Assembly: GCA_035541435.1 (NCBI GenBank)
Contig: DATKNL010000004.1
Coordinates: forward strand, 1 to 55,711
Length of the DNA stretch: 55,711 bases
Direction of reading: 5' to 3'
Origin: Minisyncoccota bacterium
Lineage (GTDB): Bacteria; Patescibacteriota; Minisyncoccia; UBA6257; 2-01-FULL-56-20
The translations under genes were made by a program, and so were the position numbers. Numbering within the stretch: the first letter of the stretch is position 1; each line of letters starts with the position of its first letter. Shown here piece after piece: positions 4,694 to 52,893 of the stretch. A model generated the notes under the pieces. That model did no database searches and had not been told where the DNA came from. It was given only the letters and a program-made list of their open reading frames with translations.

Positions 4694-4756
4694 GAAAGCG
4701 CGCGCGGGCGCAACCCCGGCAGATGGGAGGATCATCCTCGATTTGCCGAGCGATTC

Positions 4757-5179
4757 CTAATCCGACACGATCTCCCCGACGAAAAACGCGTCGATCTGCT
4801 TCCTGTTCGCAAAGAAGATCTCTTTCGGCAACTCCCCCTTTCCGAACCATCGCCATTCGTAGAACCGATCGGGCTCGCGAACCTGCGGCTCACCCAAAGG
4901 GTCTTCCGCCAGGAACCCGACGTCGAGGTAATGATGGGGCTGGATATGCTCGCGGTCATTCGTCAGATTGACGAAGCGCAAAGAGGTCGCCTCAAGGCCG
5001 GTTTCCTCCCGAAGCTCACGGCGGGCGCCATCCTCCATTTTTTCACCGACCTCCATATGGCCGCCGGGCAATCCCCATGTGCCTTCGCCGAATCCCTTGC
5101 GCCTACCGAGCAGCAGCGCCCCGCCCCGGACCACGAACACATTGAGGCCGACATGGAACGAATACCGGTCGTCGGCCAT
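4757..5179 (-). CDS. NUDIX hydrolase
   Basis: Nudix box GGHMEVGEKMEDGARRELREETGL. Confidence 0.85.
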   Translation of the reverse strand: MADDRYSFHVGLNVFVVRGGALLLGRRKGFGEGTWGLPGGHMEVGEKMEDGARRELREETGLEATSLRFVNLTNDREHIQPHHYLDVGFLAEDPLGEPQVREPDRFYEWRWFGKGELPKEIFFANRKQIDAFFVGEIVSD

Positions 5180-5184
5180 GATGT

Positions 5185-6084
5185 CTAAATCCCGTTGAAC
5201 AGCCTAAGACGGCCCGAAACGATGTTTTTGATATGTTCAACCGACGGCCCAAGCAGCTTATAAGGAGCGATCTCGTCGGGCTGGTCCTTGAGGGACCGTT
5301 CCATCCCCTGCCGCCAGGCGAGCCGCAGCTCGCTCGAGACATGGATGATCGTCATGCCGTTCTTCGCGGCCGCGACGAAGTCCTCGTCGGCCGTTCCCGA
5401 TCCGCCGTGCAGCGTCATGAACCGGCAGCCCGCGCCGCCGATCGCCTTCTTGATCTCGCCGATGAGCGCGATGTCGAGCTTCTTGTGGTCCTCGCCCGTC
5501 ACCATCGACTTGAGGAGCCCGTGCATGTTGCCGACCGCGGGAGCCAGCACGTCCACCCCCGTCTCGCGGACGAACCGCGCGGCCTCGTCGGGCGTGGAAT
5601 ATTTCATCGATTCCTGCGGACGCTCGCTCACGATCTCGGACGACGAGCCGATATAGCCGATCTCGCCCTCGATGACGATCGCCGGATTGATCGAACGCGC
5701 AAGCGCGACGGCCTCCTTCGTCTGCGCGAGGTTCTCCTCGAACGGCAGCTTCGAGGCGTCGAAGATGATCTCGTCGAATCCCGCTTCGGCCACCTCTCTC
5801 ACCTTGTCGATGGAATGGGTATGGTCGGCATTGATATAGACGGGATAGTCGAACATGTCGCGCATGGCGCGGACCATGGCGGCCGCCTCCTTCACGCCGA
5901 GGAACTCCCGCTCCCCCTCCGAGACGCCGATGAGGATCGGCAGCTTGTCGCCGCCGTGCGCGGCCGAAAGTTCGCGCGCGCCGTCCATGATGCCCTTGAG
6001 CGCGCCGAATTCCGAAATGTTGAAGTGGCCGATGGCCGCCTGGCGCGCATCGGCGTCCGCCAGGGCTTCACGCAGGGTCTTCAT
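5185..6084 (-). CDS. fba: class II fructose-bisphosphate aldolase
   Basis: 299 aa; FbaA-type N-terminus (AIGHFNISE), INADHTHS and MTLHGGSG motifs. Confidence 0.9.
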   Translation of the reverse strand: MKTLREALADADARQAAIGHFNISEFGALKGIMDGARELSAAHGGDKLPILIGVSEGEREFLGVKEAAAMVRAMRDMFDYPVYINADHTHSIDKVREVAEAGFDEIIFDASKLPFEENLAQTKEAVALARSINPAIVIEGEIGYIGSSSEIVSERPQESMKYSTPDEAARFVRETGVDVLAPAVGNMHGLLKSMVTGEDHKKLDIALIGEIKKAIGGAGCRFMTLHGGSGTADEDFVAAAKNGMTIIHVSSELRLAWRQGMERSLKDQPDEIAPYKLLGPSVEHIKNIVSGRLRLFNGI

Positions 6085-6107: not shown

Positions 6108-7109
6108 CTAGATTGACTTTGCCGAAAACTTCTTAGGGGCCTTCTTGAGGAGCGCCGTAAGCTGCGGCTTCGTGAGCAGGCCGGTCTGCGCGCCGAAGAA
6201 CTGCACGACGTGCATCGATTCGATCGGGGCCCAGCGGAGCGCCTCGGCGACCGGCAGGCCATAGATGAGCGCGCAGAGGAATCCGGTCGAGAACGCGTCG
6301 CCCGCGCCCGTGCGGGACACCGGCGGCTTCGGATCGGGATAGAGCGGCATGAAATAGCGGTTCGTGCCGTCCGACGCATAGGCGCCCTTCGGACCGTCGG
6401 TGATCACGACCACCTTCGGGCCGAGCGCATGCATGCTCCTGAAGAGCTCGTGGATGTCGGTCCCGCTCTTCTTCTTCAGCACGAGCTCCGCCTCTTCGCG
6501 GTTCATGAAGATGACGTACGTGTGCTTGTAGATCTCGCGGATCTTCTCGACGCCGTAGCGCAGCTGGAAGGTCCCGGGATTGAAGCCCATCCGCACGTTC
6601 GGATGCGAGTGGAGATACCGGGCCACCTTCCTGTGGAACGGCAGCGTGTCTTCGGCGATCGACGAGAAATAGAGCCAGTCGGTCGAATTGCCCAGCTTGC
6701 GCGGATCGTCGTATTCATAGGACTGGTGCTTGATGAGGATCGTCCGCTCGGCCTCATAGGTCAGCACGAAGTGATAGTTGGTCGGTTTCGCCTTGTTGAC
6801 CTTCACGAGGTCGCGCTTCACGCCCTCCTTCTTATATTTCTCGAGCACGTCGCGGCCATACTGGTCGCCGCCGATCGCCGTGAGCATCCCGACGGACAGG
6901 CCGAGGCGCGCGGCGCCGACCGCCACGTTCGACGAGTTGCCGACCGCGGGGATGACCTCGAGGGACTTGTACGGGATCTTGTCGGCAAACGACATCGAAA
7001 GCGTCGCATGCTCGTGATTCCTGTCCCAGGTCACTTTCGCCTCCTGGAGCGTGATGAAGGCGTCGACGACGACGTCACCGATGCTCACCAGGTCGTATTT
7101 CTTTTTCAT
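6108..7109 (-). CDS. PfkB-family carbohydrate kinase (substrate unknown)
   Basis: 333 aa ribokinase-like fold; C-terminal TGAGDAF signature. Confidence 0.85.
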   Translation of the reverse strand: MKKKYDLVSIGDVVVDAFITLQEAKVTWDRNHEHATLSMSFADKIPYKSLEVIPAVGNSSNVAVGAARLGLSVGMLTAIGGDQYGRDVLEKYKKEGVKRDLVKVNKAKPTNYHFVLTYEAERTILIKHQSYEYDDPRKLGNSTDWLYFSSIAEDTLPFHRKVARYLHSHPNVRMGFNPGTFQLRYGVEKIREIYKHTYVIFMNREEAELVLKKKSGTDIHELFRSMHALGPKVVVITDGPKGAYASDGTNRYFMPLYPDPKPPVSRTGAGDAFSTGFLCALIYGLPVAEALRWAPIESMHVVQFFGAQTGLLTKPQLTALLKKAPKKFSAKSI

Positions 7110-21000: not shown

Positions 21001-21056
21001 CGGCGCGACGGTAGCGGCGGTGGCGGCGGCGAACATGGCCGCGCCCCGCGCCGTCC

Positions 21057-21095
21057 CAAAATAAAAGAGGTCCGCCGCGATGTTCGGGCGAACCT
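21057..21095 (-). terminator. terminator after the 76-aa gene
   Basis: 9-bp stem (one G-U on the minus-strand RNA) followed by a U-run (A-run 21058-21066 on plus). Confidence 0.55.
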
Positions 21096-21422: not shown

Positions 21423-21494
21423 TCCGCAGTAGCTCAATGGTAGAGCGGCGCCCTGTTAAGGCGATGGTTCCAGGTTCGAGTCCTGGCTGCGGAG
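21423..21494 (+). tRNA. tRNA-Asn (anticodon GUU), no encoded CCA
   Basis: Manual cloverleaf: acceptor TCCGCAG/CTGCGGA, D arm GCTC-AATGGTA-GAGC, anticodon loop CTGTTAA, T arm CCAGG-TTCGAGT-CCTGG, discriminator G. Confidence 0.9.
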
Positions 21495-21503
21495 CACTTG
21501 ACT
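21491..21503 (+). repeat. 13-mer GGAGCACTTGACT spanning the tRNA-Asn 3' end, copy 1
   Basis: Exact second copy at 22241-22253. Confidence 0.85.
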
Positions 21504-21526
21504 TTTATAATAATCAATTATATAAT
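21498..21526 (+). promoter_or_regulatory. cassette 1 promoter TTGACT-17-TATAAT
   Basis: -35 starts 4 nt after the tRNA discriminator base. Confidence 0.6.
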
Positions 21527-21586
21527 ACGCGCAGCGTAAATTTTCATTTCTACAATTTACAAGCACAAGATCGAAAGGAGGGCTCC

Positions 21587-22114
21587 ATGCCCAGAATGAT
21601 CACGCCGAAGTTCTTGACGGCTGAAATGGCCAAGACTGCGATCGAGGCCACTCTCAACTGTCTGTATGAGGGCAAGCTAAAGGATGCCCTCCAACCGCAT
21701 CGCAAACAGCTGTACGTAGTCGTCCTCGTGCCCGGCATGATGGACGACCGTCCGGATTATCCGGCGTGGCCGAATTATGACCTCCGACCCGTGGCACTCT
21801 ACGAGTACACACTCGGCGATCCCGAGGAGTTCCCCTACCCGTTCAACGACATCGCAAAGTGCAAAGCGCTCCAGCTCTGGCACGACCGCAACGATGACCG
21901 GACTGAGATCATCCCGCATTTGCTCTTCCCCGGGGACACTCCGTTCTGGGGCGGGGTCAAACGGCGCGGCATCGTTGTCTCGTGCTCTGGCGTGAAACCC
22001 TGGCTCGACAAAATGATCTCGGGCATGGTTGCCGACATGCTGGTTGCCATGGCTCACGCCGCCTGGGAGAAGAGCGCGGACAAGGCCGACGACGAGCTCT
22101 GCTTCCTCACCTAA
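21587..22114 (+). CDS. cassette 1: GlcG/DUF336-like (putative heme-binding) protein
   Basis: 175 aa; AAAGGAGGG SD; GGVKRRGIVVSCSGV resembles the GlcG GG...GAIGVSG core; functional call tentative. Confidence 0.55.
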   Translation: MPRMITPKFLTAEMAKTAIEATLNCLYEGKLKDALQPHRKQLYVVVLVPGMMDDRPDYPAWPNYDLRPVALYEYTLGDPEEFPYPFNDIAKCKALQLWHDRNDDRTEIIPHLLFPGDTPFWGGVKRRGIVVSCSGVKPWLDKMISGMVADMLVAMAHAAWEKSADKADDELCFLT

Positions 22115-22191
22115 TACCGCTTCGCCAACGAAGACCGTTTCGTCTTCAGGCGAGGCGGTTTTCTATTTTTAGGAGCCGCAAACTGTATAAT

Positions 22192-22245
22192 TCTGCCACT
22201 ACCCTTTCCCATTCCACAGTTCTGAACTTGTCTATTCGTGGGAGC
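22192..22245 (+). repeat. 54-nt junction repeat, copy 1 (upstream of cassette 2)
   Basis: 41/54 ungapped identity with 23004-23057 (31/36 over the first 36 nt). Confidence 0.8.
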
Positions 22246-22253
22246 ACTTGACT
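22241..22253 (+). repeat. 13-mer GGAGCACTTGACT, copy 2
   Basis: Exact match to 21491-21503; overlaps the end of 54-nt repeat copy 1. Confidence 0.85.
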
Positions 22254-22277
22254 GGTAAAGTATATTAATGCTATAAT
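22248..22277 (+). promoter_or_regulatory. cassette 2 promoter TTGACT-18-(TGc)TATAAT
   Basis: direct read. Confidence 0.6.
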
Positions 22278-22358
22278 ATAGCCAGCTATTTCACTATAAG
22301 TATTGGCAAAAATACCAATCGCCTGACCGGAACGGCAGGTTAAAGTGGAGAGGCTAAT

Positions 22359-22931
22359 ATGAAAAAGCAACGGATGGAACCGTGGGTCACATGGCGATTC
22401 GATGGAAACCCGTGCGAAAACGCTGGCAACCTCACCAGCATGTGGAACGAGAATCAGACGGATCGCTGGCGCGTAAAGGAAATCACCATTACCCGCGAGA
22501 AAGCTATCGGACACGTGCGAGTCTTGTTCACCGAATCGTGGGTCGAATGCGCCAACCAGCATTTCCCTGAAGTTGATCCCCAGCTGAACGAGAGGCTCGG
22601 GCCGCTTGTGAGTGGAGGCGTCTTCTTCAACTGGACCCGATACGGGAACGGCTTGTTACTCAAGTTCCAGCTGCAGAGTGGAATGTCCTTCTGCCAGGCC
22701 GCTGTGAGAAATGGCGTTATCCTCATCACGGCTCTCGGGATGGGCGACTCTGCGCTCCGGACCCCTGAAGTATCGTTCGTCCCGATGATGAAGCGAGTGG
22801 GCGAACGCCAAGGTAAGAAGGTCAGCTACCACATACCCTGGGGCGATGAACTGCGAGACAAGTTCTGCAGCGAGTTCTACTTCGGCAGCAGTAACCATCG
22901 CGAGCTCTTTCCCCAGCACCCAGTAAGATAA
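22359..22931 (+). CDS. cassette 2: hypothetical protein (orphan)
   Basis: 190 aa; own promoter, GGAGAGG SD and strong terminator; no recognisable motif. Confidence 0.65.
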   Translation: MKKQRMEPWVTWRFDGNPCENAGNLTSMWNENQTDRWRVKEITITREKAIGHVRVLFTESWVECANQHFPEVDPQLNERLGPLVSGGVFFNWTRYGNGLLLKFQLQSGMSFCQAAVRNGVILITALGMGDSALRTPEVSFVPMMKRVGERQGKKVSYHIPWGDELRDKFCSEFYFGSSNHRELFPQHPVR

Positions 22932-22936
22932 GGTCA

Positions 22937-22980
22937 CCCCGCCTCGACGAAAACTCGTCGCAAAGGCGGGTTTTCTTTTT
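22937..22980 (+). terminator. terminator after cassette 2
   Basis: Two-tier hairpin CCCGCC..CGACGA-aaac-TCGTCG..GGCGGG followed by TTTTCTTTTT. Confidence 0.75.
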
Positions 22981-23003
22981 ATGCATATCCAAATTGCCGC
23001 ATC

Positions 23004-23057
23004 TCTGCCGCTACCCTCCCCCACTCCACGGTTCTGAACGCGTCCAACAGGGGAAGC
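23004..23057 (+). repeat. 54-nt junction repeat, copy 2 (downstream of cassette 2)
   Basis: See copy 1; shares TCTGCC-CTACCCT-CCCA-TCCAC-GTTCTGAAC. Confidence 0.8.
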
Positions 23058-23085
23058 CAAATTTCAGTTTGGGATTTGTCACCAA

Positions 23086-23114
23086 TTGACCTCTGCCGGC
23101 TTTGCTCCTATGCT
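23086..23114 (+). promoter_or_regulatory. cassette 3 promoter TTGACC-17-TATGCT
   Basis: direct read. Confidence 0.5.
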
Positions 23115-23207
23115 ATCGATAGCTCGCGCTGGGAAGCGCCAATGGAACATTCAGAACATTCGCCGCTCGATGATCATCCGCGTTCTTCGACAGGCCGGGA
23201 GGCAATG

Positions 23208-23651
23208 ATGGAAGTGAACACGGTCAACTACGAGTTTCTTGCGCCAACAACAATCCGCGCCGGAGACGTGGATGCAATCAATCACCTGCTTCGCCAACTC
23301 ACCGACAACCCGGTTCCCATCGTAGAATGGCAGCTCCGAGAGGTCTGCGAAAAATCCACGCTCTGCGTGGCGCGGAACGTCGAGGGACGAATTGTCGGCA
23401 TGAACACGCTGACCATCCGATACATTCCCACCGGAAAGGTCGGCTTGCTCGACGACGTGGTCGTTGACGAGTCGGCGCGGGGACACCAGGTAGGAAGGAC
23501 GCTCGTTTCGAAACTGATTGAACACGCACAAAGCGTCAGCGTGAACCGCCTGGAACTCACCTGCAGACCCGCTCGAAAAGCAGCCAACGCACTCTATGAG
23601 GGCCTTGGATTTCAAAGAAGCGAGACTAATCGCTGGGTAATGAAGTTCTGA
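23208..23651 (+). CDS. cassette 3: GNAT-family N-acetyltransferase
   Basis: Acetyl-CoA motif VVDESARGHQVGRTLV; GGGAGG 5 nt upstream of ATG 23208 (23205 and 23142 are alternatives). Confidence 0.8.
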   Translation: MEVNTVNYEFLAPTTIRAGDVDAINHLLRQLTDNPVPIVEWQLREVCEKSTLCVARNVEGRIVGMNTLTIRYIPTGKVGLLDDVVVDESARGHQVGRTLVSKLIEHAQSVSVNRLELTCRPARKAANALYEGLGFQRSETNRWVMKF

Positions 23652-23673
23652 ACACGGACACCTCGAATTCTCT

Positions 23674-23698
23674 GCCGCCTCGTGTTAGGCGGCTTTTT
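23674..23698 (+). terminator. terminator after cassette 3
   Basis: GCCGCC-tcgtgtta-GGCGGC-TTTTT. Confidence 0.75.
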
Positions 23699-23742
23699 CA
23701 TTTCAAATGCAGGTTCTCACATCCCCACGCGCCGGAGCGAAA

Positions 23743-23772
23743 TTGACGTATTCTTTTCAAATACGCTATAAC
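23743..23772 (+). promoter_or_regulatory. cassette 4 promoter TTGACG-18-TATAAC
   Basis: direct read. Confidence 0.55.
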
Positions 23773-23804
23773 CTTACTAGCTACTCTCGGCAAAGGAGGC
23801 ATTC

Positions 23805-24686
23805 GTGAAGCTAACCGACGTCCTGCCCTCATATCGGGCATCGTCCAACAGGGAAGCGCCGATTGAAGATGCGCATTTCTCAAACGAACCCGCAAGGCTG
23901 TTTGGCGTTTTCGACGGCGTTTCGGAAGCGTACAGCCCCGCCCATCCGTTCAGCTGGTACTTCGGAGAGTTGACGGGCGGGCAGATGGCCGCAAACGTGT
24001 TCCGCACCCGCGGAAGCAGCCAGCTGCCGTCCGTCGACGTCGAACGGTTCCTGCTGGAGGCAAACGAGGAAATCTTGGCGCGCCACCGGCAACACCACAA
24101 GGATCCCCTCCTCGGAGACGACGTCGGCGGAGGAGCGTTCGCCGTATGCCGTCTCGGCAAGGAACGGATCACCTTCGTCGTGGGGGCGGACTGTTTCGCT
24201 TTTTACAAACTCAACGGACGCTTCCATTTCATCACCAACTTCGACGAAGCCGCCTATGAAGTCGAGGATCGCAACAACCGATTCTTTGCCGAGTGCCTCG
24301 AACGAGCTGCCGGCAGCAAAGCCGTGGCGTTCGACCTCTTCTGGGAACGCTACCGGCTCAAGAGGATCAGCACCGCCAACAAGAACAAGGGGACGGGCGG
24401 ATTTGCCACGCTGAACGGCGATCCGAACGTGCGAAACCTCTGGACCGTCGAGACGATCGACGCCGAACCGTGCCCCGAAGCAATCCTTCTCGGGACTGAC
24501 GGCTGCTTGGCCTCGACCCTCACCGACCCCAGACATCGGCCTGAATTCATAGCCACATTCAGCGAGGTCTATGGGCGAGGAGGTATCAACGGCATCCGGG
24601 CGTGGCGCGATGTAGTTGAAAGCGCCGAACGACACGTCACGGCCCGCCACGAAGGCACGGCGCTTGAATTGAAATTGGAACCATAG
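23805..24686 (+). CDS. cassette 4: PP2C/SpoIIE-like protein phosphatase (divergent)
   Basis: 293 aa; AAAGGAGG + 6 nt + GTG; FGVFDGVS, VVGADC and LLGTDGC resemble PPM metal-binding motifs. Confidence 0.7.
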   Translation: MKLTDVLPSYRASSNREAPIEDAHFSNEPARLFGVFDGVSEAYSPAHPFSWYFGELTGGQMAANVFRTRGSSQLPSVDVERFLLEANEEILARHRQHHKDPLLGDDVGGGAFAVCRLGKERITFVVGADCFAFYKLNGRFHFITNFDEAAYEVEDRNNRFFAECLERAAGSKAVAFDLFWERYRLKRISTANKNKGTGGFATLNGDPNVRNLWTVETIDAEPCPEAILLGTDGCLASTLTDPRHRPEFIATFSEVYGRGGINGIRAWRDVVESAERHVTARHEGTALELKLEP

Positions 24687-24700
24687 CTCGTGCCACCAGT

Positions 24701-24731
24701 GCCCGCAAGGCAACATCTTGCGGGCTTTTTG
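24701..24731 (+). terminator. terminator after cassette 4
   Basis: GCCCGCAAG-gcaacat-CTTGCGGGC-TTTTT. Confidence 0.85.
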
Positions 24732-24774
24732 TTTCAGAAAGGTCTTAGCATCTTCCACTCGCCAGAGCTGACAA

Positions 24775-24804
24775 TTGACTTCCATCCGACAAATAAATTA
24801 CAAT
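24775..24804 (+). promoter_or_regulatory. cassette 5 promoter TTGACT-18-TACAAT
   Basis: direct read. Confidence 0.55.
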
Positions 24805-24840
24805 TTCTGCGGCCACTTGATTCTTGAATGGAGGTTCGCC

Positions 24841-25392
24841 GTGAAAATCGCGCGTCACACCAACTTCAACTTCGCCCATCGCTTGGTTGATATCCTGCCC
24901 ATGCCAAATCCACAAGGTTTGACAAGGAAACCAAGGGAAATTGACCTGCGTTTCTTCGCCTGCGTAAGATTTACGGATGCTTACAATGGCAGAGATTCCG
25001 TCATCGATGGCCTTGAAGGTACCATCTATCTCTATGGCAGCCAAGTTGTTTGGATCAGCTGGAAATCCTATGAAAACGGCAGGCGTATTGGCCCTTCGCG
25101 CGGCGAAGGCAACCTCCTGTACCGCAAAATGTTTGACGTTGCGCGTGCGTACCAAGATATCCTCAGGATTGCGCGTCGCAAATACCTACACGAACCACTC
25201 TCAGAGGAGGAAAATGAAAATCCTTCTCGAGCGGATTTCGTTTTGATCGAAGACGAGGCCTTCGCTGCGCTCAAGAAGCACCCTCAATACAAAAACCTCA
25301 TCAAGGAGCTCGGCCTTGTCGATATCGTCCGGGACCGCGACGGTTTCGTAGAGGTGAATGTTCGAAAACGTGATCGGGAACCCGCCGCTTAG
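24841..25392 (+). CDS. cassette 5: hypothetical protein (orphan)
   Basis: 183 aa from GTG 24841 (GGAGG 6 nt upstream); flanked by terminators at 24701-24731 and 25381-25409. Confidence 0.6.
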   Translation: MKIARHTNFNFAHRLVDILPMPNPQGLTRKPREIDLRFFACVRFTDAYNGRDSVIDGLEGTIYLYGSQVVWISWKSYENGRRIGPSRGEGNLLYRKMFDVARAYQDILRIARRKYLHEPLSEEENENPSRADFVLIEDEAFAALKKHPQYKNLIKELGLVDIVRDRDGFVEVNVRKRDREPAA

Positions 25393-25409
25393 GCGGGCTT
25401 CTTTTTTTC
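25381..25409 (+). terminator. terminator after cassette 5 (overlaps its stop codon)
   Basis: CCCGCC-gctta-GGCGGG followed by CTTCTTTTTTT. Confidence 0.75.
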
Positions 25410-25443
25410 AACGAGACTCCGACATCCTGAACCGAATATAAGA

Positions 25444-25449
25444 TATAAT
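25444..25449 (+). promoter_or_regulatory. -10 box TATAAT, 6 nt from ATG 25456 (ABC ATPase)
   Basis: direct read; just downstream of terminator 25381-25409. Confidence 0.55.
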
Positions 25450-25455
25450 GCTCAT

Positions 25456-26196
25456 ATGTCCGTCCTCGAAGTAAAGGATCTGACGAAGACATATGGCACA
25501 AACCCCGCCGTCAAGGGAATCTCCTTTTCGGTTGCGCGGAACGAGATCGTGGGGCTTCTCGGTCCGAACGGAGCCGGAAAGACAACCACCATCGACATGA
25601 TCCTCGGCGTCCTCGAACCGACCAGCGGAACGATAACCATCGAGGGCAACGACGTCGCCCGCAAGAAGAGCGAGGCTCTTGCCGTGACGAATTTCGCCGC
25701 CGTATACGCCCAGCTTCCGGGCAACCACACGGTTCATGAGAACCTCAACATCTTCGGACTCCTCTATGGCGTGCCGAACCGCGAGCGGCGCATCGACGAA
25801 GTCATCAGGGAGTTCGACCTTGAACCGTTCAGGAATACGCGGTGCGGCGTGCTCTCGTCGGGCGAGCAAACGCGGGTCAGCCTCGCCAAAGCGACGATAA
25901 ACAGTCCTCATCTGCTCCTCCTTGACGAGCCAACGGCATCGCTCGACCCTTCAACCGCACAGACCATCCGTCAGAAGATCAAGGGGTATGCGGCGAAGGG
26001 CATCGGCGGCGTCCTTTGGACATCGCACAACATGCAGGAGGTCGCGGACGTCTGCAACCGCATCCTGTTCCTTTCGCACGGCAGGATCCTCCTCGAGGGC
26101 GACCCCCGGACGCTGCCGCACGAGCACGGCAAAAAAGACCTTGAAGAGCTTTTCATCTCGATCGCCCGCGAACCCCTCCTTCACGAATCCCTCTAA
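25456..26196 (+). CDS. ABC transporter ATP-binding protein (ABC-2 exporter type)
   Basis: Walker A GPNGAGKTT, signature LSSGEQTRV, Walker B LLLLDEPT. Confidence 0.9.
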   Translation: MSVLEVKDLTKTYGTNPAVKGISFSVARNEIVGLLGPNGAGKTTTIDMILGVLEPTSGTITIEGNDVARKKSEALAVTNFAAVYAQLPGNHTVHENLNIFGLLYGVPNRERRIDEVIREFDLEPFRNTRCGVLSSGEQTRVSLAKATINSPHLLLLDEPTASLDPSTAQTIRQKIKGYAAKGIGGVLWTSHNMQEVADVCNRILFLSHGRILLEGDPRTLPHEHGKKDLEELFISIAREPLLHESL

Positions 26197-26202
26197 GCGA
26201 TC

Positions 26203-27006
26203 ATGAACGCCCAACGAGTTTACGCGATATTCCTCCGTCAGTGGTATCTCATCCGCGGCAACGCCACGCGCTTCGTTCAGATGTTCATCTGGATAACCGT
26301 CGACATCGTGATGTGGGGATTCCTGAGCAGATACCTTGGCGGCATATCCGGATCGGGATTCAATTTCATATCGGTGTTCCTGGGGGCGATCCTGCTTTGG
26401 GATTTCCTCATTCAGATCATGCAGGGCATCACCATGTCGTTCTTCGAAGACGTCTGGTCGCGCAACTTCCTGAACATCTTCGCCTCGCCGATCAGGATTT
26501 CCGAATATGTGGCAGGGTTCACGCTCGCGAGCATCCTCCGCGGCATCATCGCACTGGCGGTCATGCTCGTTCTCGCTTCGGCGATGTTCGGATTTTCAGC
26601 CCTCATCTATGGAGCCGCCATCTCGTTGTTCCTTCTTGTTCTCTTTCTCTCGGGCGTCGCGCTCGGCATCGTCGCCGTGAGCATCGTGCTGCGCCTGGGT
26701 CCGGCGGCGGAATGGTTCATCTGGCCGATCCCCGCCCTGCTCTCGCCGTTCGTCGGCGTACTCTATCCCCTCACCGTCTTGCCGGCATGGATGCAATTTA
26801 TCGGCCATCTGCTCCCTCCATCTTACGTTTTCGCGGGAGTTCGCACCATCGTGAGCGGCGGAGCATTCCCGGGAACAGAATTATTACTCGGCATCGTTTT
26901 GGCGCTTCTCTATATCGTCCTCGCCTATTTCATGCTGATGACGGTCTATAAGAAAGCTATCCGCAGCGGATTGATCGCCCGGTATAGCGCCGAGACGGTA
27001 AATTAA
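26203..27006 (+). CDS. ABC-2 type transporter permease
   Basis: 267 aa, six predicted TM segments, 6 nt after the ATPase gene. Confidence 0.85.
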   Translation: MNAQRVYAIFLRQWYLIRGNATRFVQMFIWITVDIVMWGFLSRYLGGISGSGFNFISVFLGAILLWDFLIQIMQGITMSFFEDVWSRNFLNIFASPIRISEYVAGFTLASILRGIIALAVMLVLASAMFGFSALIYGAAISLFLLVLFLSGVALGIVAVSIVLRLGPAAEWFIWPIPALLSPFVGVLYPLTVLPAWMQFIGHLLPPSYVFAGVRTIVSGGAFPGTELLLGIVLALLYIVLAYFMLMTVYKKAIRSGLIARYSAETVN

Positions 27007-27034
27007 TTGCCCCTCCAAGCCTCTCATTCAAGCG

Positions 27035-27715
27035 ATGGACAACCTCTACGTTCAGACCATCCGCGCGTCGATCTCCGGAATGCTGGTATTCCTGGGCATC
27101 CTTTTCATTCCGGCATGGACGTTCGCCTATTGGCAGGGCTGGGCATTCTTCGCCACGTTCGGCGCGTCCGCCACGCTGCTCACGCTGTACATGGCGGTCT
27201 ATGACAAAAAATTGCTCGAACGCCGCCTGCACGCCGGACCAGGAGCAGAAAAAACACCCGCCCAGAAGGTCATCATGACCTTCGCCATGGCCGCCTTCGT
27301 CGCCTCGGTCGTCATCCCCGTCCTCGACCATCGCTTCTCATGGTCGCCCGCGGTGCCGTCATATCTTTCGATCATCGGCGACGCGTGCGTCGCCTTCTCT
27401 TTTATAATGATATTCCTCGTCCTGCGAGCCAACAGCTATGCCGCCTCGACCATTCAGGTCGACTCGGAGCAGAAAGTCATTTCGACGGGACCCTATGCCG
27501 TGGTTCGCCACCCCATGTACGCAGGCGCCCTGCCCATTTTCATCATGACACCGATCGCCCTCGGTTCCTGGTGGGGACTGATTTTCGTTCCTCTTTTCAT
27601 TCCGGTGCTCATCCTGCGGCTGCTTGATGAGGAAAAATTCCTGCGAAAGAACCTTCCGGGTTATGCGGAGTATGCCACGAAGACGCGCTGGCGCCTCATA
27701 CCGGGAATCTTTTGA
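27035..27715 (+). CDS. isoprenylcysteine carboxyl methyltransferase (ICMT)/PEMT-family membrane methyltransferase
   Basis: 226 aa multi-TM; GPYAVVRHPMYAG motif. Confidence 0.8.
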   Translation: MDNLYVQTIRASISGMLVFLGILFIPAWTFAYWQGWAFFATFGASATLLTLYMAVYDKKLLERRLHAGPGAEKTPAQKVIMTFAMAAFVASVVIPVLDHRFSWSPAVPSYLSIIGDACVAFSFIMIFLVLRANSYAASTIQVDSEQKVISTGPYAVVRHPMYAGALPIFIMTPIALGSWWGLIFVPLFIPVLILRLLDEEKFLRKNLPGYAEYATKTRWRLIPGIF

Positions 27716-27773
27716 TGGCGGCTGCTTGAGGTGAGAATATTGAGCTTCCCGTCGGCAGCAACCTGCCGAAACC

Positions 27774-27803
27774 AAAAGAAAAAGCTGCCTTCATCAGGCA
27801 GCT
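27774..27803 (-). terminator. terminator after 27825-28157
   Basis: AGCTGCCT-tcatc-AGGCAGCT preceded on plus by an A-run. Confidence 0.65.
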
Positions 27804-27824
27804 CGGCAAGGAGCAGTCCGCTCC

Positions 27825-28157
27825 TCAGCACGGTTGAAACTCGACTTCTTCCCGCTGGAACCCCAACGCCCTGATCGCCTCAAGGCTCGGCTGCCTGAGA
27901 TCGAAGAGGAGGTCGTATTGGTCCTGAAATTTTTGATGAAGCCCTGCAACGACGTCGCGAAGCGTCTTGCCGTTTGCGGCGGCGCCGCCATGTTCGGGAT
28001 CGCCGATGAACGAGCGAAAGGATCTTTCTCCCGTGCGCTCGATGGTGATCGTGGGAAAGGGCTCCCCATCCCACAGCACCCAATGTTCAAACTTGACCAC
28101 CCTGCCGCCCTTCACGGTTATGGTGTCCGGTGGCAGTTTCGCAGTCTGGTTCATCAT
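27825..28157 (-). CDS. hypothetical protein (110 aa)
   Basis: Start at ATG 28157 (AAGGAG 8 nt upstream); terminator at 27774-27803. Confidence 0.55.
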   Translation of the reverse strand: MMNQTAKLPPDTITVKGGRVVKFEHWVLWDGEPFPTITIERTGERSFRSFIGDPEHGGAAANGKTLRDVVAGLHQKFQDQYDLLFDLRQPSLEAIRALGFQREEVEFQPC

Positions 28158-28280
28158 ATGTCCGATTCTCCTTCCGTGAGCTGGGAACATCCTAATATGG
28201 CAGGTTGCCGTTGTCTAGCGGCACCCTCACCCGTCGGAGCACGTTCCACGCGATCACCCAGGCAGCAGGATGCGCTCATT

Positions 28281-28311
28281 AAAAAAACCCGCCGATCCCT
28301 GGCGGGTTTTT
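28281..28311. terminator. bidirectional terminator after the patatin gene
   Basis: AAAAAAA-CCCGCC-gatccct-GGCGGG-TTTTT. Confidence 0.75.
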
Positions 28312-29144
28312 CACTCCCTAAGCCAGCGCTCCAGGCGCTGGAGCACGGTTCCGCGTTTCTCGCCGAGCAGTTTTTCGATCTCCGCGATCTTGTGCGCGGC
28401 GGCGCGATAGCCGTGGTCGGCGAGCTCCTGCCCCTTCTGGAAATCGGACGACGCGTATTCCTCGAGGTGGGGCTCTATCATCACCTCGTTCTCGAGCGGC
28501 GGTATGGTGTAACGCGACATGATGCTGATCGACCGGTCCATGATGTCGAGAATGTTGCCCGGGATCTTCTTCGGCATCCATCGCGACAGGTTGACGCCGA
28601 CGCGCACGTCCGCACCCATCGAGACAAGCGGCGACATCGGGACGTTCTCGAGCAGTCCCCCGTCCACAAGCAAGTCGTTCCCGATCACGACCGGCGTGAA
28701 GACGATGGGGATCGCGGCGCTCGCCCGGACCGCCTGCAGGACGCTGCCGCTCCGGTACACGACCTTCTCCCCGGTGCTGATGTCGGCAGCGACGATCGCG
28801 AGCGGCATCCTGGCGTCTTCGATGCGGTGGTCGCCGCCGATCAGGCCCTTCACGACGCCGGCGAGGGCTTCGTTCGAAATGATCCCGAGCTTCGAGGGCG
28901 AGAACTTCGAGATCGACCGCCAGCTCAGTTTCTCGGCGGTCGTCCGCATCGTTTCGATCGAGACGCCGAACGCATAGCAGGCAGCCACGACCGCGCCCGC
29001 GCTCGTGCCCGCGATGCAGTCGATGGGGATCGCGCGGTCATGAAAGCACTGCAGGACGCCGAGATGCGCGTTTCCGAGCGCCGATCCGCCTCCGAGCGCA
29101 AGGCCAAGCCGCTTTTTCATCTCTTCATTATAGCCCGCCGCCAT
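28311..29144 (-). CDS. patatin-like phospholipase
   Basis: GGGSALG oxyanion motif, GTSAG (GxSxG) serine and DGG aspartate; start at ATG 29144 with AAGGAG 5 nt upstream (the long ORF extension is discarded). Confidence 0.85.
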   Translation of the reverse strand: MAAGYNEEMKKRLGLALGGGSALGNAHLGVLQCFHDRAIPIDCIAGTSAGAVVAACYAFGVSIETMRTTAEKLSWRSISKFSPSKLGIISNEALAGVVKGLIGGDHRIEDARMPLAIVAADISTGEKVVYRSGSVLQAVRASAAIPIVFTPVVIGNDLLVDGGLLENVPMSPLVSMGADVRVGVNLSRWMPKKIPGNILDIMDRSISIMSRYTIPPLENEVMIEPHLEEYASSDFQKGQELADHGYRAAAHKIAEIEKLLGEKRGTVLQRLERWLRE

Positions 29145-34259: not shown

Positions 34260-34302
34260 ATCCGCAGGCAGTGCAACATCCTAAATCTTTTTGGAGGTGC
34301 GC

Positions 34303-34713
34303 ATGGCGCAACGGAAAACCCTCGCCCTTCCTGGCGCGCTCGCCAGGAGGCAGATACGAAAGCCGCAATGGCGCTTCGAGGCGGACGACGACCTATGGAC
34401 CCTTGATCTTGTATCGGGCCTCATCGAGGTTTCGATCTGGGATGGGCGCCGACGCCCCATCCTCTGGCCGTGGTTCGACGGATTCCGATGTCAGATCAGC
34501 GGCGAAAAGAGCGTCGACCTGGAATTCCCGGGCGTGACGTCCGCTGACGAAGCGAAGCGGCTTGCGGTTCAGGAAGTCATGAACGTGCTCCACCAAGCAG
34601 GCAGCGAACTCGGTTTTTGGGCGAAGAAAACCGATGTCAAAGTCACCGAACCGATCGTTCTCCTTTCCACAAGGGCGCATGGGAAACGCGGAAGCGGAAA
34701 GGGGCGCTCATAG
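34303..34713 (+). CDS. hypothetical protein (136 aa)
   Basis: TTGACC-18-TATAAC promoter, GGAGG 5 nt before ATG, terminator at 34732-34766. Confidence 0.55.
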   Translation: MAQRKTLALPGALARRQIRKPQWRFEADDDLWTLDLVSGLIEVSIWDGRRRPILWPWFDGFRCQISGEKSVDLEFPGVTSADEAKRLAVQEVMNVLHQAGSELGFWAKKTDVKVTEPIVLLSTRAHGKRGSGKGRS

Positions 34714-34731
34714 GGTTGGAAATTTCTGAAA

Positions 34732-34766
34732 TAAAAACGGCTCGCGCAATGCGAGCCGGATTTTTT
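34732..34766. terminator. bidirectional terminator between convergent genes
   Basis: CGGCTCGC-gcaat-GCGAGCCG flanked by an A-run and TTTTTT. Confidence 0.8.
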
Positions 34767-34777
34767 AAAAACGATGA

Positions 34778-35131
34778 TCATGCGTTGATCTGACGCAGCC
34801 CCTCTTCTTCGGTGTCCCAGATTTCGAAGCAGGTATAAAGCTTCGTTATCAGGAGGAGGTCGCGTATCTTCCTGCAAAGGCACACGATCACAATGCGGCC
34901 GGCACGATTCCGCACCGTGGTATGGGCGTCGACCATTTCGTCGATGCCGGGCGCATCGATATAAGGAACGTCGGCAAGGTTCAACAGGATCTTCCGCTCT
35001 CCGCTGTCGAGCAGCTGGCGGACCTTGTCCCGAAAGGCAATTGATCCTTCTCCCAGCGTAATCCTGCCGGACAGGTCCACGATGGCAATGGTGTTGTCAT
35101 TGCCGCCGCGGCGCACATCGATCTTGAGCAT
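34778..35131 (-). CDS. STAS-domain protein (anti-sigma-factor antagonist, SpoIIAA-like)
   Basis: 117 aa; LSGRITLGEG...KILLNLADVPYIDAPGI pattern. Confidence 0.8.
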   Translation of the reverse strand: MLKIDVRRGGNDNTIAIVDLSGRITLGEGSIAFRDKVRQLLDSGERKILLNLADVPYIDAPGIDEMVDAHTTVRNRAGRIVIVCLCRKIRDLLLITKLYTCFEIWDTEEEGLRQINA

Positions 35132-38476: not shown

Positions 38477-39553
38477 TCAAAGGGACGGTCGATTTTTCTT
38501 GCTGTTCGAGTGCCCTTTGATGACGAGTTCGGCCTTTTGCTTCATCTCGTGCGCCTTGCGGATCTCTTGCAGCCGCCTTCCCTCGCGAAGAAGCAATTCA
38601 CGTTGCGAGAGGAGCATGGCCGCCCTTGATCCCGCGAAATACGCCTCGTCGAGCGAAGCCACCTTGCGATCCTCGATCACCGGATGAAGGTGCCGGCTCA
38701 ACTTGGTGCGAAACGCAATCTCCTTCAGCTTGTCGAGGCACGCCCTATCAAGCGAAAGCAGGCGTTCCCTGATAAGCGTCCATTCGTTGAGGCCGATCAA
38801 GACTTCAAGTATCCATGGCTTTGCTGTCTCGATGCGGGAACGCAGTTTTTCGTTCTCGCCGACCGCAGCCGCCCGATCCTCTTCTTCGCCGCAGAAATAG
38901 TCAGGCTCCTTCCATCCCCACATGAACGTCGACAGCTTCACCACGAAATCCCTTGCCTTTGCTTCGTAATGAGAGGCGTCTTGCCATTCGGGAACGTTCA
39001 GGTTGGGAATGCGGATCGATTCTTCATCAAGCCATCCCTTTTCTGTCCGGAAAAATTTCACAAGGGATGGGAAGAACCGCGGAGTGACGACGTCCAGCTC
39101 CCAATGACGATTCCATTCATCGCCGTGTTTCCCGGAGCCTTCCAATTCGAAGCTGCCGAAAAAGTTCTGGCAAAGCAGGTCGAACGCCTTCTTGGCAAGT
39201 ATCTGCCGCATGCCATGGGGCTTCCTCTTTGTGACATAGCCACGCTTGTCCTGTCCGAACTCATATTCCTTATCGGGATCGCCGGCCTTTTTCAACAACG
39301 AACCGTTGGACCAGCCGTCCGCCATCTTCATATAAAAGAGGACGCGGTCGATGTGGTCATATTTCTTCTCTTCCCAATGGCGGGTTCCCATCGGAACCTC
39401 AAACCCTACGTGCAGCAGCCCAAGCATCTCTTCGATGGTGACTGCCGCCTGCCAGCGTTCGAGCCATTCGTTCCAGTTATGCAGCGGACGGATTTCCCGG
39501 GTGAAAAGGTCGTGGATCGGCACTTCCTGCTTTTCTTCGATATTTGCGGGCAT
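38477..39553 (-). CDS. hypothetical protein (358 aa, orphan, lower GC)
   Basis: TTGACT-17-TATAAG promoter, AAAGGAGGG SD 5 nt before ATG; W/E/K-rich; no recognisable domain. Confidence 0.65.
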   Translation of the reverse strand: MPANIEEKQEVPIHDLFTREIRPLHNWNEWLERWQAAVTIEEMLGLLHVGFEVPMGTRHWEEKKYDHIDRVLFYMKMADGWSNGSLLKKAGDPDKEYEFGQDKRGYVTKRKPHGMRQILAKKAFDLLCQNFFGSFELEGSGKHGDEWNRHWELDVVTPRFFPSLVKFFRTEKGWLDEESIRIPNLNVPEWQDASHYEAKARDFVVKLSTFMWGWKEPDYFCGEEEDRAAAVGENEKLRSRIETAKPWILEVLIGLNEWTLIRERLLSLDRACLDKLKEIAFRTKLSRHLHPVIEDRKVASLDEAYFAGSRAAMLLSQRELLLREGRRLQEIRKAHEMKQKAELVIKGHSNSKKNRPSL

Positions 39554-41811: not shown

Positions 41812-42204
41812 TCACACGCACACGAGGTCTTCGACGGACTCCTCCTCCCGGACGGCGACCGGCATCGCCCGGTTCGCCGCCCGCTCCTGCATCAGCTCCA
41901 TGCGCTGCCTGAAGATCGCCCGTCTCCAATCGATGGTCAGGATGTCATAGGCGGCGAGCACCTGAGGCGAACGCTGTTCACCCAAGACGAGGAGGCCCAA
42001 ATCGCACATCTTGGAATCGCCAAAGTTGAACCTCCCTCGCGCCTCGTTGTAGTCGCCTTCGAGCTGTCCGATGACGCAGTTTTCGGTACAAGCGATATTG
42101 AGCCGCTGAACGTCGATGCGTTCCACCCATTCGCGACCGCCATATCGTTCACTGAGATACCGCATCCCTTGCTGTACCCGATTATCGTCCTCAAACATAT
42201 GCAC
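41812..42204 (-). CDS. hypothetical protein (130 aa)
   Basis: ORF with coding-like composition; GTG 42204 or ATG 42198; no domain recognised. Confidence 0.45.
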   Translation of the reverse strand: MHMFEDDNRVQQGMRYLSERYGGREWVERIDVQRLNIACTENCVIGQLEGDYNEARGRFNFGDSKMCDLGLLVLGEQRSPQVLAAYDILTIDWRRAIFRQRMELMQERAANRAMPVAVREEESVEDLVCV

Positions 42205-52299: not shown

Positions 52300-52806
52300 T
52301 CAGCCATAGAACACCCCTTGCGTATTCGGGACTGCCTCTTCGGGAATGAGCCGAAGGGCGATGCTCCCGGCCTGAGCGTACTGCCGCATCCGTCGCGCAT
52401 TCACGGAAGCATCGGAACCGGGCATGAGGCGCAGTTCCCGGATGAGACCCGACCGAAGGATCGGGGCATAGAGCCCGTCGAACAGCTTCCCTTGCAGCTC
52501 GCGTTCCTCGTCGTGCGAGAGGCTGCCGCCGTCGCGCCCGCCAAGAAGGATCATTACGGCGCGCTTCCTGAGCGGCAGATAGTTGAACGTCGGGACGTGC
52601 TTCTTCTTGAGCCATGCGATCATCTGCCTGATCCGTTCACCGTTCTCTTCGAGCGTCCTTGTTCCGGACGTGAAGGGACCGACCACGGTGCAGATCTGCG
52701 GCGGCATGCGCCGCAGGACGTCGACGGCTATCCCAACCAGCTCGTGAAGCGTTTCAGCCTTCTCGATTCGCTCCGGGTCGGAGGAATCATAATAATGTGT
52801 AACCAC
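52300..52806 (-). CDS. hypothetical protein (168 aa)
   Basis: GTG start with GGAGAA 6 nt upstream; terminator at 52247-52281; no confident domain. Confidence 0.55.
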   Translation of the reverse strand: MVTHYYDSSDPERIEKAETLHELVGIAVDVLRRMPPQICTVVGPFTSGTRTLEENGERIRQMIAWLKKKHVPTFNYLPLRKRAVMILLGGRDGGSLSHDEERELQGKLFDGLYAPILRSGLIRELRLMPGSDASVNARRMRQYAQAGSIALRLIPEEAVPNTQGVFYG

Positions 52807-52893
52807 GTGTCGTTCTCCAAGAATGAAATGATCTGGGATAATTATATCATTAAAAAAATCTAAGTCAATATGTTCCCGCCCGTGCGGCCGCCG

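Follow-up and report, generated by a model that had tools for sequence, protein, structure and literature searches.

In staphylococci, the large serine recombinases (LSRs) CcrAB and CcrC build composite islands of the staphylococcal cassette chromosome (SCC, SCCmec) by tandem insertion at the 3′ end of rlmH (orfX), a conserved housekeeping gene, with direct repeats of the integration-site sequence at the borders; the units measure 3–60 kb, and the arrays include recombinase-less pseudo-elements that are presumably moved in trans. Islands linked to tRNA genes, such as P4-type elements at asn tRNAs and the Prochlorococcus islands or tycheposons, employ tyrosine integrases and carry a repeat that is a true 15–50-nt copy of the tRNA 3′ end. 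The locus described here lies in a 55,711-nt stretch of a Minisyncoccota genome (‘the window’; contig DATKNL010000004.1 of GCA_035541435.1, to whose forward strand all coordinates refer), where the gene for tRNA-Asn(GUU) is followed by five co-oriented single-gene units (encoding U1 to U5), the first two of which each end in a copy of a conserved ~57-nt element, termed B. This array probably consists of recombinase-less small cargo cassettes that arose by repeated integration of an LSR family at the tRNA-Asn 3′ end, a reading that draws directly on B itself, on its distribution, polarity and junction behaviour, and on its link to LSR genes in other genomes.

Arrays of this kind share with SCC a conserved gene whose 3′ end is the point of insertion by LSRs, the tandem arrangement and the recombinase-less units; they differ from it in their anchorage at a tRNA gene, their patescibacterial hosts, units that are mostly single genes of ~0.4–1.5 kb, and a site of ~57 nt that is conserved across many species. 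With integrons and clusters of attC sites lacking integron integrases (CALINs) they have in common co-oriented, small cassettes with mostly a single open reading frame (ORF), unrelated and often orphan functions, a conserved site at each end, insertion at one fixed proximal site, and many arrays without a nearby recombinase. However, every defining integron feature tested fails for B arrays: the associated recombinase is of the serine type rather than an IntI tyrosine recombinase, and the window contains no Xer/Int-like match (tblastn, E = 0.33); B has neither an attC-like hairpin nor the R″/R′ GTTRRRY boxes, which its GTTCTGA does not fit by reading; the cassettes carry their own promoters and terminators, with no reliance on Pc; and insertion is at the 3′ end of a tRNA as the proximal site, with any recombinase gene placed inside the array and converging on the site.

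Like tRNA-linked islands, the B loci combine a reusable tRNA 3′-end hotspot, a sharp break in synteny, several direct att scars within a hypervariable island, and integrase-less satellites, whereas only GGAG(CA) is common to B and the tRNA, the repeat would be the element's own arm, and the crossover would fall at the very end of the tRNA; of the classical marks of such islands, the window shows no tRNA 3′-end repeat of at least 15 nt above chance in 21497–25500 and no tyrosine integrase. The sites of phage serine integrases (Listeria A118/LI, Bxb1, phiC31; PMC3783163) are similar in their inverted half-sites, central dinucleotide and an outer motif placed 5 bp nearer the centre in attB, and the enzymes in their set of Resolvase, Recombinase and zinc ribbon domains; B arrays depart from these in a left arm about twice the length of a half-site, an apparent reuse of the occupied site, tiny cargo and a near absence of B from viral contigs. 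Open-access literature searches returned no description of such arrays, which is absence of evidence and not proof of novelty. The array is a variant of known tandem integrative arrays and possibly a serine-recombinase analogue of integrons.

Element B in the window and in other genomes

The features that define the proximal part of the array are as follows, where a slash within a motif marks the point of the putative crossover.

21423–21494, plus strand: tRNA-Asn(GUU), anchor of the array (Rfam, 69 bits; ARAGORN gives 21423–21495)
21471–21494, plus strand: tRNA 3′ end, GTTCGAGTCC-N7-GG/AG, putative attB-type left arm, with the same GTCC-N7-GGAG spacing as in B
21491–21503, plus strand: junction J0 and first copy of a 13-mer, composed of GGAG (putative crossover GG/AG), CAC and TTGACT (the −35 of U1, possibly a right half-site too)
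21495–22245, plus strand: cassette 1, with promoter 21498–21526, U1 21587–22114, terminator 22130–22163, and B1
22178–22247, plus strand: B1 (37.1 bits, E = 9e-11), with core 22189–22245, GTTCTGAAC 22219–22227, GTCT 22230–22233 and GGAGC 22241–22245; putatively an attP-type left arm plus core, i.e. an attR-type junction
22246–23057, plus strand: cassette 2, with promoter 22248–22277, U2 22359–22931 (orphan), terminator 22949–22975, and B2
22985–23063, plus strand: B2 (46.7 bits, E = 9e-14), with core 23001–23057, GTTCTGAAC 23031–23039, GTCC 23042–23045 and GGAAGC 23052–23057, which holds one additional A

ARAGORN, Rfam and ORF calls bear out the tRNA-Asn(GUU) gene and the five co-oriented monocistronic genes that had been proposed from a reading of the sequence (hereafter the original prediction), and the 54-nt repeat on either side of U2, 41 of 54 positions identical, is likewise real: the similarity between the two intergenic regions (IGs) that hold it, IG1 and IG2, extends over ~76 nt with a score of 49, clearly exceptional against a control of 435 pairs of other window intergenic regions, in which the highest score was 34 and all matches were terminators. 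The repeat is one copy of B, with the consensus ...CCAAT..A..GTTCTGAAC..GTCC-N7-GGAGC. A hidden Markov model (HMM) built from 151 copies outside the window finds exactly two copies in its 55.7 kb (best of 20 shuffles, 6.5 bits) and nothing at IG3, IG4 or IG5.

An HMM of the 54-nt repeat, run on 119 tRNA-Asn loci gathered by a degenerate tRNA-Asn pattern scan of species-representative genomes, gave strong copies in L017, L024, L053, L057 (three copies), L058 and L068, all downstream of and co-oriented with the tRNA, the ORFs around them being unrelated between species. In total, B is present in six other genomes and at least 120 metagenome contigs, the latter from an unbiased contig scan with the pattern CCANTNNANNGTTCTGAACNNNNCNNNNNNNNGGAGC that returned at least 120 loci where an estimated ~2 were expected by chance. 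Among the matches listed, B occupies a single strand within each locus (177 of 177 copies), the coding sequence between copies being ~60% on that strand and ~40% on the opposite one; 41 loci hold at least two copies; and tRNA-Asn, seen in 19 loci, is always upstream of B and co-oriented with it, appearing in 12 of the 26 loci with at least 3 kb of sequence upstream of the first B. The window shows the pattern by which a B-element cassette array is defined here, namely two or more B copies (HMM E<1e-8) that follow tRNA-Asn in its own direction and are separated by short cargo of unrelated sequence. On one metagenome contig (L175, numbered in the direction of B) a tRNA-Pro at 703 stands in place of tRNA-Asn, ahead of B at 1131 and 1695, which raises the possibility that the family also targets tRNA-Pro.

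Counted from GTTCTGAAC, the profile of 146–157 copies is strongly conserved between −30 and +26, also at positions left free in the search pattern; conservation extends weakly to −48 and drops off right after GGAGC, at positions that the pattern does not fix. The upstream part, positions −30 to −1 (22189–22218 and 23001–23030 in the window), reads A..TC......AT.......CCAAT..A.. and lies 25–54 nt from the putative crossover. GTTCTGAAC is a palindrome; in two B copies of L057 (Adlerbacteria; 4744–4817 and 5844–5917) the GTTCTGAAC-NN-GTCC module is doubled in tandem, 30 nt apart. The profile has no codon periodicity, and B as the coding tail of an LSR C-terminus was rejected as the main constraint, there being no relaxation at third positions and the LSR ORF ending earlier when joined to the tRNA. 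A structured RNA or a DNA hairpin of the attC or repetitive extragenic palindromic (REP) type was rejected too: Rfam finds the tRNA only, and B1 and B2 fold no better than shuffles on either strand (z −0.9 to +0.6).

A phage origin was rejected on the search of 2.9 million viral contigs, which gave one match to the B pattern and none to the tRNA pattern, together with the blank PHROGs and PADLOC results for U1, U2, U4 and U5. The sole viral copy (L253:8810–8860, IMG/VR) is followed by a short antisense ORF, and no tRNA was found on its contig, which is perhaps a piece of chromosome misclassified as viral.

The 13-mer GGAGCACTTGACT recurs exactly at 21491–21503 and 22241–22253, as had been predicted, and the 38 nt from the B1 core through the U2 promoter resemble J0 (tRNA end/IG0 against IG1); the suggestion that the 13-mer spans the tRNA end stands only in part, as just GGAG belongs to the mature tRNA, the rest being CAC and the −35 hexamer. 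Of 157 B junctions, 23 have TTGAC no more than 16 nt after GGAG, as do 5 of 114 tRNA junctions; random positions give a background of 0.9%, which makes the enrichment just after B ~16-fold. Because of this enrichment, the 13-mer is best read as the common core followed by the opening bases of a cassette, and many cassettes appear to begin with their own −35 at the junction. The same enrichment could also suit a cis-regulatory role, in which B would be an operator or activating site of an accessory-gene regulon, GGAGC-N-TTGAC a part of its promoter family, and the link to tRNA-Asn incidental; B1 ends 2 nt ahead of the U2 −35, the palindrome is tandemly doubled in L057, and a GGGAaCA-TTGACT promoter occurs 30 kb away (52841–52868, minus strand) with no tRNA nearby. 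Such a role is nevertheless very improbable, given that B keeps to one strand in 177/177 of the listed copies whatever the orientation of neighbouring genes (the L057 copy at 5844–5896 precedes a minus-strand gene), that it can be exchanged with the tRNA-Asn end as the partner of an LSR 3′ end, that homology between genomes breaks at its right edge, and that the 55.7 kb holds two copies of B only versus ~11 promoters of the same class.

The original prediction saw a weak resemblance of the repeat to the tRNA T-arm and allowed that older copies of the tRNA end had been pushed downstream. Aligned locally to 21497–25500 on both strands, the tRNA scored 17–19 at best, where shuffles averaged 19.7, and the B HMM matches no tRNA-Asn; tRNA-derived att copies were therefore rejected as sequence homology, and the perceived likeness is explained by a common architecture of GTTC, GTCC and GGAG rather than by sequence copying. 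In place of a displaced tRNA end, the repeat would be an element-borne attP-type arm plus the shared GGAG core.

Junctions, the serine recombinase and site geometry

Homology reaches the tRNA and then stops in six close or moderately close genome pairs. The break falls 0–3 nt after the tRNA GGAG-CA in the five pairs read base by base (L017/L024, L039/L049, L078/L118 and L079/L091 being those named with their junction sequences) and at the tRNA end by blastn coordinates in L053/L057; only the B core is common downstream of the tRNA in L017/L024 and L053/L057. Comparison of tRNA-Asn loci in relatives, which the original prediction had proposed as a check, turned up differently filled loci: the window's left flank (LTD / NrdAB / p224, leading to tRNA-Asn) is kept in 10 of the 119 loci, and U1–U5, like the ABC and PEMT genes beyond them, are absent downstream in all ten. 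In the closest relative, L003, tRNA-Asn is followed by a VTT-domain gene, a Fic gene, a U1 homolog (82% identical) and then other genes, so that the U1 cassette is third after the tRNA, and a decayed copy of the 54-nt repeat follows U1. Serial insertion at the tRNA 3′ end, with older units pushed downstream, had been proposed earlier, and the sharp breaks after GGAG-CA, the invariable position of B downstream of the tRNA and the third place of U1 in L003 support it.

Three further observations concern tRNA sequences at these loci. In L003 (3945–4316), a small GIY-YIG ORF separates the intact tRNA-Asn from a partial copy of its 5′ end, in which a hairpin replaces the D-loop; this arrangement suggests a homing-endonuclease-type insertion beside the tRNA. 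Just upstream of its U1 homolog lies a tRNA-like T-arm/acceptor fragment, GGTTCGAGTCCTGTCCGCAGGTAC (~6195–6285, minus strand), uncalled by ARAGORN and Rfam. In L120, a direct copy of the tRNA-Asn 3′ half, CCCAGGTTCGAGTCCTGGTCGCGGAGCA, stands 17 nt after the intact tRNA (~2512–2540 in the direction of the tRNA); in contrast to B, this is a duplication of the tRNA end of the classical kind.

Cassette turnover by homologous recombination of DNA taken up by the cell, in which tRNA-Asn (72 nt) and B (57 nt) would serve as arms and no site-specific recombinase would take part, would account for the conservation of both arms across species and for cassette contents that are wholly different between relatives retaining tRNA and B. 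The breakpoints, however, lie within 0–3 nt of GGAG-CA and are not scattered along the arms, an LSR gene shows a tight and directional link to both sites, the 5-bp offset between attB- and attP-type arms would have no role, and the conservation of B itself is left unexplained, all of which makes this route highly unlikely.

Clustering of the ORFs from 240 loci showed that the family most often encoded downstream of tRNA-Asn (44 loci) is an LSR, with the Pfam domains Resolvase, Recombinase and Zn_ribbon_recom on three full-length proteins. Its gene is always antisense to tRNA-Asn, and in 28 of 119 genomes the 3′ end of this gene directly adjoins that of tRNA-Asn or overlaps with it, 19 of the ORFs concerned measuring at least 900 nt; two of the loci in which it abuts the tRNA (L026 and L095) also have the window's NrdAB–p224–tRNA left flank. 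In other loci the LSR 3′ end abuts B. The same element arm was found joined to either partner: the LSR 3′ end meets B in L149 and L151 and tRNA-Asn in L210, the right arms being at least 85% identical and the switch falling at GGAG/C. L210 holds a whole 9-kb element, tRNA/LSR...B, followed by an older LSR remnant, and is a tandem insertion at the tRNA. In the window, J0 (tRNA/cassette 1), B1/cassette 2 and B2/unit 3 are bona fide junctions of this B/LSR system.

The left arm reads GTCC-N7-GG/AG and the right arm, at LSR-adjacent junctions, C-N4-5-T(A/T)GGA(C/T), which by reading gives an inverted GTCC...GGAC around the GG/AG centre (GTCC-N7-GG/AG-N7-GGAC). GTCC occupies half-site positions 10–13 in both tRNA-Asn and B, whereas GTTC lies at 21–24 in B (where GTTCTGAAC spans 16–24) and at 16–19 in the tRNA, 5 bp nearer the centre, again by reading. 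For the Listeria LI integrase, the motif of the zinc ribbon domain (ZD) spans 16–24 in attP and sits 5 bp further inwards in attB (PMC3783163). Because the 5-bp shift of GTTC matches this published geometry, B is assigned as a putative attP-type arm and the tRNA end as a putative attB-type arm. The breaks of homology at GGAG-CA, the exchange of B and tRNA at the LSR 3′ end and the 5-bp geometry together argue for serial insertion at the tRNA end and identify the LSR as the machinery, found in relatives.

On this basis, crossover would take place in the last bases of the tRNA gene, at GG/AG, where the tRNA 3′ end (GTTCGAGTCC-N7-GG/AG) would act as the attB-type left arm and the incoming element would bring the ~57-nt B (..CCAAT..A..GTTCTGAAC..GTCC-N7-GG/AGC) as its attP-type left arm; the right arm of complete elements would be the 3′ end of the LSR gene, read towards the site. 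The product would be tRNA/element...B/older DNA, so each event would add one B and shift earlier insertions downstream. Cassettes 1 (U1) and 2 (U2) still end in an intact B, and units 3–5, probably with the ABC and PEMT genes, would be older or otherwise acquired cargo whose sites have decayed. Every cassette supplies its own −35/−10 right after the junction, its Shine–Dalgarno (SD) sequence and its terminator, and the LSR would act in trans from elsewhere, or may have been lost.

Several points weigh against repeated LSR integration as the origin of the array. A search of the 55.7 kb for an LSR or any other recombinase detected none (tblastn E>1), in agreement with the original prediction of a window without an integrase. 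B is conserved as far out as ~54 nt, counted from the centre, roughly double the length of a normal LSR half-site; its similarity to the tRNA end, taken by itself, falls short of statistical significance; only one viral contig carries it; and units 3–5 have no detectable B. The U1 family occurs in many non-tRNA contexts without B and is widely conserved, so U1 is not an obvious accessory gene. No terminal repeats indicative of circular or excised forms were present in the 120 contigs listed. LSRs are, moreover, normally inactive on attL, so repeated use of an occupied tRNA site requires explanation; the enzyme may, for example, tolerate an old P′ arm in the role of B′, or elements may be excised and then integrate anew.

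Some of these points would suit integration only of large LSR-carrying elements of several kilobases, the cassettes being leftovers of internal deletion without mobility of their own and B an inert scar or the 3′ fragment of a dead LSR gene. Integration would then still be serial, with nothing integron-like about it. Behind many B copies stand short antisense ORFs that still resemble the LSR C-terminus, the remnant of an earlier LSR follows the 9-kb element of L210, the 120 contigs listed showed no excised mini-circle, and units 3–5 of the window lack sites. Deletion leftovers are, however, an unlikely origin. The intervals from the tRNA or a B to the next B are tight and short, with a median of 954 nt (interquartile range 700–1534) across 84 intervals among the matches listed, 46 of which hold one ORF and two a long LSR gene; a promoter stands right at the junction in many cassettes; and B stays highly conserved, without codon periodicity, where the neighbouring LSR sequence is wholly lost. 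The window cassettes, at 751 and 812 nt, are typical of this size range, and under repeated LSR-family integration, the preferred reading, such ~0.8-kb cassettes may themselves be mobile.

Distal units, expression signals and cargo

Beyond B2 the array continues with three units that lack a recognisable B, and with a further low-GC region.

23058–23700, plus strand: unit 3, with promoter 23086–23114, GNAT acetyltransferase 23208–23651 (alternative start 23142) and terminator 23674–23693; no B detected after it
23691–23747: IG3, which contains GTTCT..CCCC-N7-GGAGC and resembles IG4
23701–24730, plus strand: unit 4, with promoter 23743–23772, PP2C-fold protein 23805–24686 and terminator 24701–24725
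24731–25410, plus strand: unit 5, with IG4 24723–24779, promoter 24775–24804, 183-aa protein 24841–25392 (sparse family) and terminator 25381–25397
25456–28190: region after the array, with ABC ATPase, ABC-2 permease, PEMT-like gene and 121-aa ORF (GC 57.7%, lower GC at third codon positions, GC3); probable continuation of the variable region

Degenerate versions of the 13-mer had been proposed at 23732–23748 and 24764–24780. The B HMM does not detect them, though IG3 and IG4 are alike over ~57 nt with a score of 35, borderline against the control maximum of 34, and GGAGC or AGAGC stands ahead of the −35 in units 3–5. Decayed B at IG3, IG4 and IG5 is suggestive by eye and by the likeness of IG3 to IG4; IG3 may be one such copy, not demonstrable as such. 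The earlier interpretation of the junction repeats as att sites thus holds for units 1 and 2 and finds no detectable site at units 3–5. Since no B can be demonstrated there, arrival of these three units by the B route is presumed; they share architecture, composition and rarity with cassettes 1 and 2.

The predicted promoter for each unit was recovered, with sigma70-like matches of 11/12 at 21498–21526 and 22248–22277, 10/12 at 24775–24804 and 9/12 at 23086–23114, and, by reading, TTGACG-18-TATAAC at 23743–23772 for U4; three of the eight matches scoring at least 10/12 in the whole window fall in the 4 kb of the array. Terminator-like hairpins lie 3′ of all five genes, those foreseen for units 2–5 and one at unit 1 as well. 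Many core genes instead have a TATAAT-like hexamer 6–8 nt before the start codon and no SD (e.g. starts 3983, 13247, 13764, 14290 and 49841 on the minus strand and 25456 on the plus strand), and look leaderless on that account. The contrast drawn earlier between array and leaderless flanks is therefore valid for many core genes and not for all: a minority class with −35/−10, leader and SD (GC3 0.68–0.75) takes in the five units and also 52300–52806(−), 38477–39553(−), 41812–42204(−) and 34291–35131, the layout of promoter, SD and terminator recurring at 52300–52806(−) and 38477–39553(−), and the promoter class of the array has ~11 members in 55.7 kb. The promoter region of 52300–52806(−) (52807–52893, minus strand) aligns over 57 nt with the U2 promoter (22239–22293), including GGGAaCA-TTGACT, and this gene has neither tRNA nor B nearby; an SD-region 13-mer, GAAAGGAGGGCTC, is common to U1 and 38477–39553(−).

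The array is lower in GC (54.7%; units 50–59%) than the window (61.4%), as predicted, the flanking core genes lying at 60–66% rather than the 65–70% first estimated; GC3 is 0.57–0.73 in the array versus 0.8–0.94 in core genes. U1–U5 are mutually unrelated at both protein and DNA level, for which reason tandem duplication of a promoter–gene–terminator unit was rejected. This foreign composition and the prevalence of orphan or sparse genes are counted in favour of repeated LSR-family integration. In L104, the patatin gene found at 28311–29144 (minus strand) in the window lies 3.4 kb after tRNA-Asn, versus 6.8 kb in the window, with other genes between, and the variable stretch therefore probably extends to ~28.2 kb.

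The gene labels given earlier largely hold. The predicted model of U1 (predicted local distance difference test, pLDDT, 92) has its best Foldseek matches all to DUF336/GlcG-type proteins (probability 0.94–0.99, template modelling (TM) score about 0.45–0.57), and its family, conserved and widespread in Patescibacteria in many different contexts, counts 313 matches at 50–82% identity, with named homologs from Candidatus Yonathbacteria, Pacebacteria, Uhrbacteria and Parcubacteria. U2 is an orphan with no homolog among 5.8 billion proteins, the unit 3 protein has a strong GNAT match in Pfam, and U4 has a PP2C fold by structure prediction (E about 1e-9) and seven distant homologs; U5, labelled an orphan, has ~40 homologs, all distant. 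Sequence-profile searches of the PDB returned nothing for U1 and U4, whose folds were recognised only through structure prediction, and PHROGs and PADLOC gave no matches for U1, U2, U4 or U5. Two U4 homologs (L009:8001–8903 and L011:8001–8891) are encoded inside sugar/polysaccharide biosynthesis clusters, directly upstream of a DegT-type aminotransferase, and the role of the U4 family may lie in glycan pathways instead of protein signalling. Cargo in other B loci is mostly of unknown kind, with NYN, extracytoplasmic function (ECF) sigma and SRPBCC proteins also present.

Two metagenomic contigs overlap the window. A 4.2-kb Logan contig is identical to it (100%) over 22260–26467, and a 71.9-kb contig in the European Nucleotide Archive (ENA; ERZ27256510 k141_3040692) differs by 15 substitutions and two indels, seven of these 17 differences being packed into 35 nt (21048–21082) between p224 and an 86-aa minus-strand ORF. 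The gene content of the window, with DUF192, SpoU, LTD and small genes, points to the Patescibacteria, as do the named U1 homologs.

Meaning for gene flow in Patescibacteria

A broader and more tentative proposal, held with less than even confidence, is that Patescibacteria possess an integron-like LSR platform, in which single-gene mini-cassettes (promoter, ORF, terminator and B) would be inserted serially at the tRNA-Asn 3′ end or at an existing B, excised and shuffled as units, often with the recombinase supplied in trans. Patescibacteria (candidate phyla radiation, CPR) have very small genomes, and how they acquire genes is little understood; the tRNA-Asn hotspot, a searchable 57-nt site and an LSR family together give a concrete handle on their horizontal gene flow. 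B also offers a route for mining accessory and orphan genes, as attC-targeted surveys do for integrons, and natural attB/attP pairs for a new LSR clade aimed at a universally present sequence are of use to genome engineers. If the mini-cassettes are individually mobile, they would represent a convergent, serine-recombinase version of the integron principle, and if the platform is integron-like, these tiny-genome symbionts would have a dedicated locus of exchangeable accessory genes.

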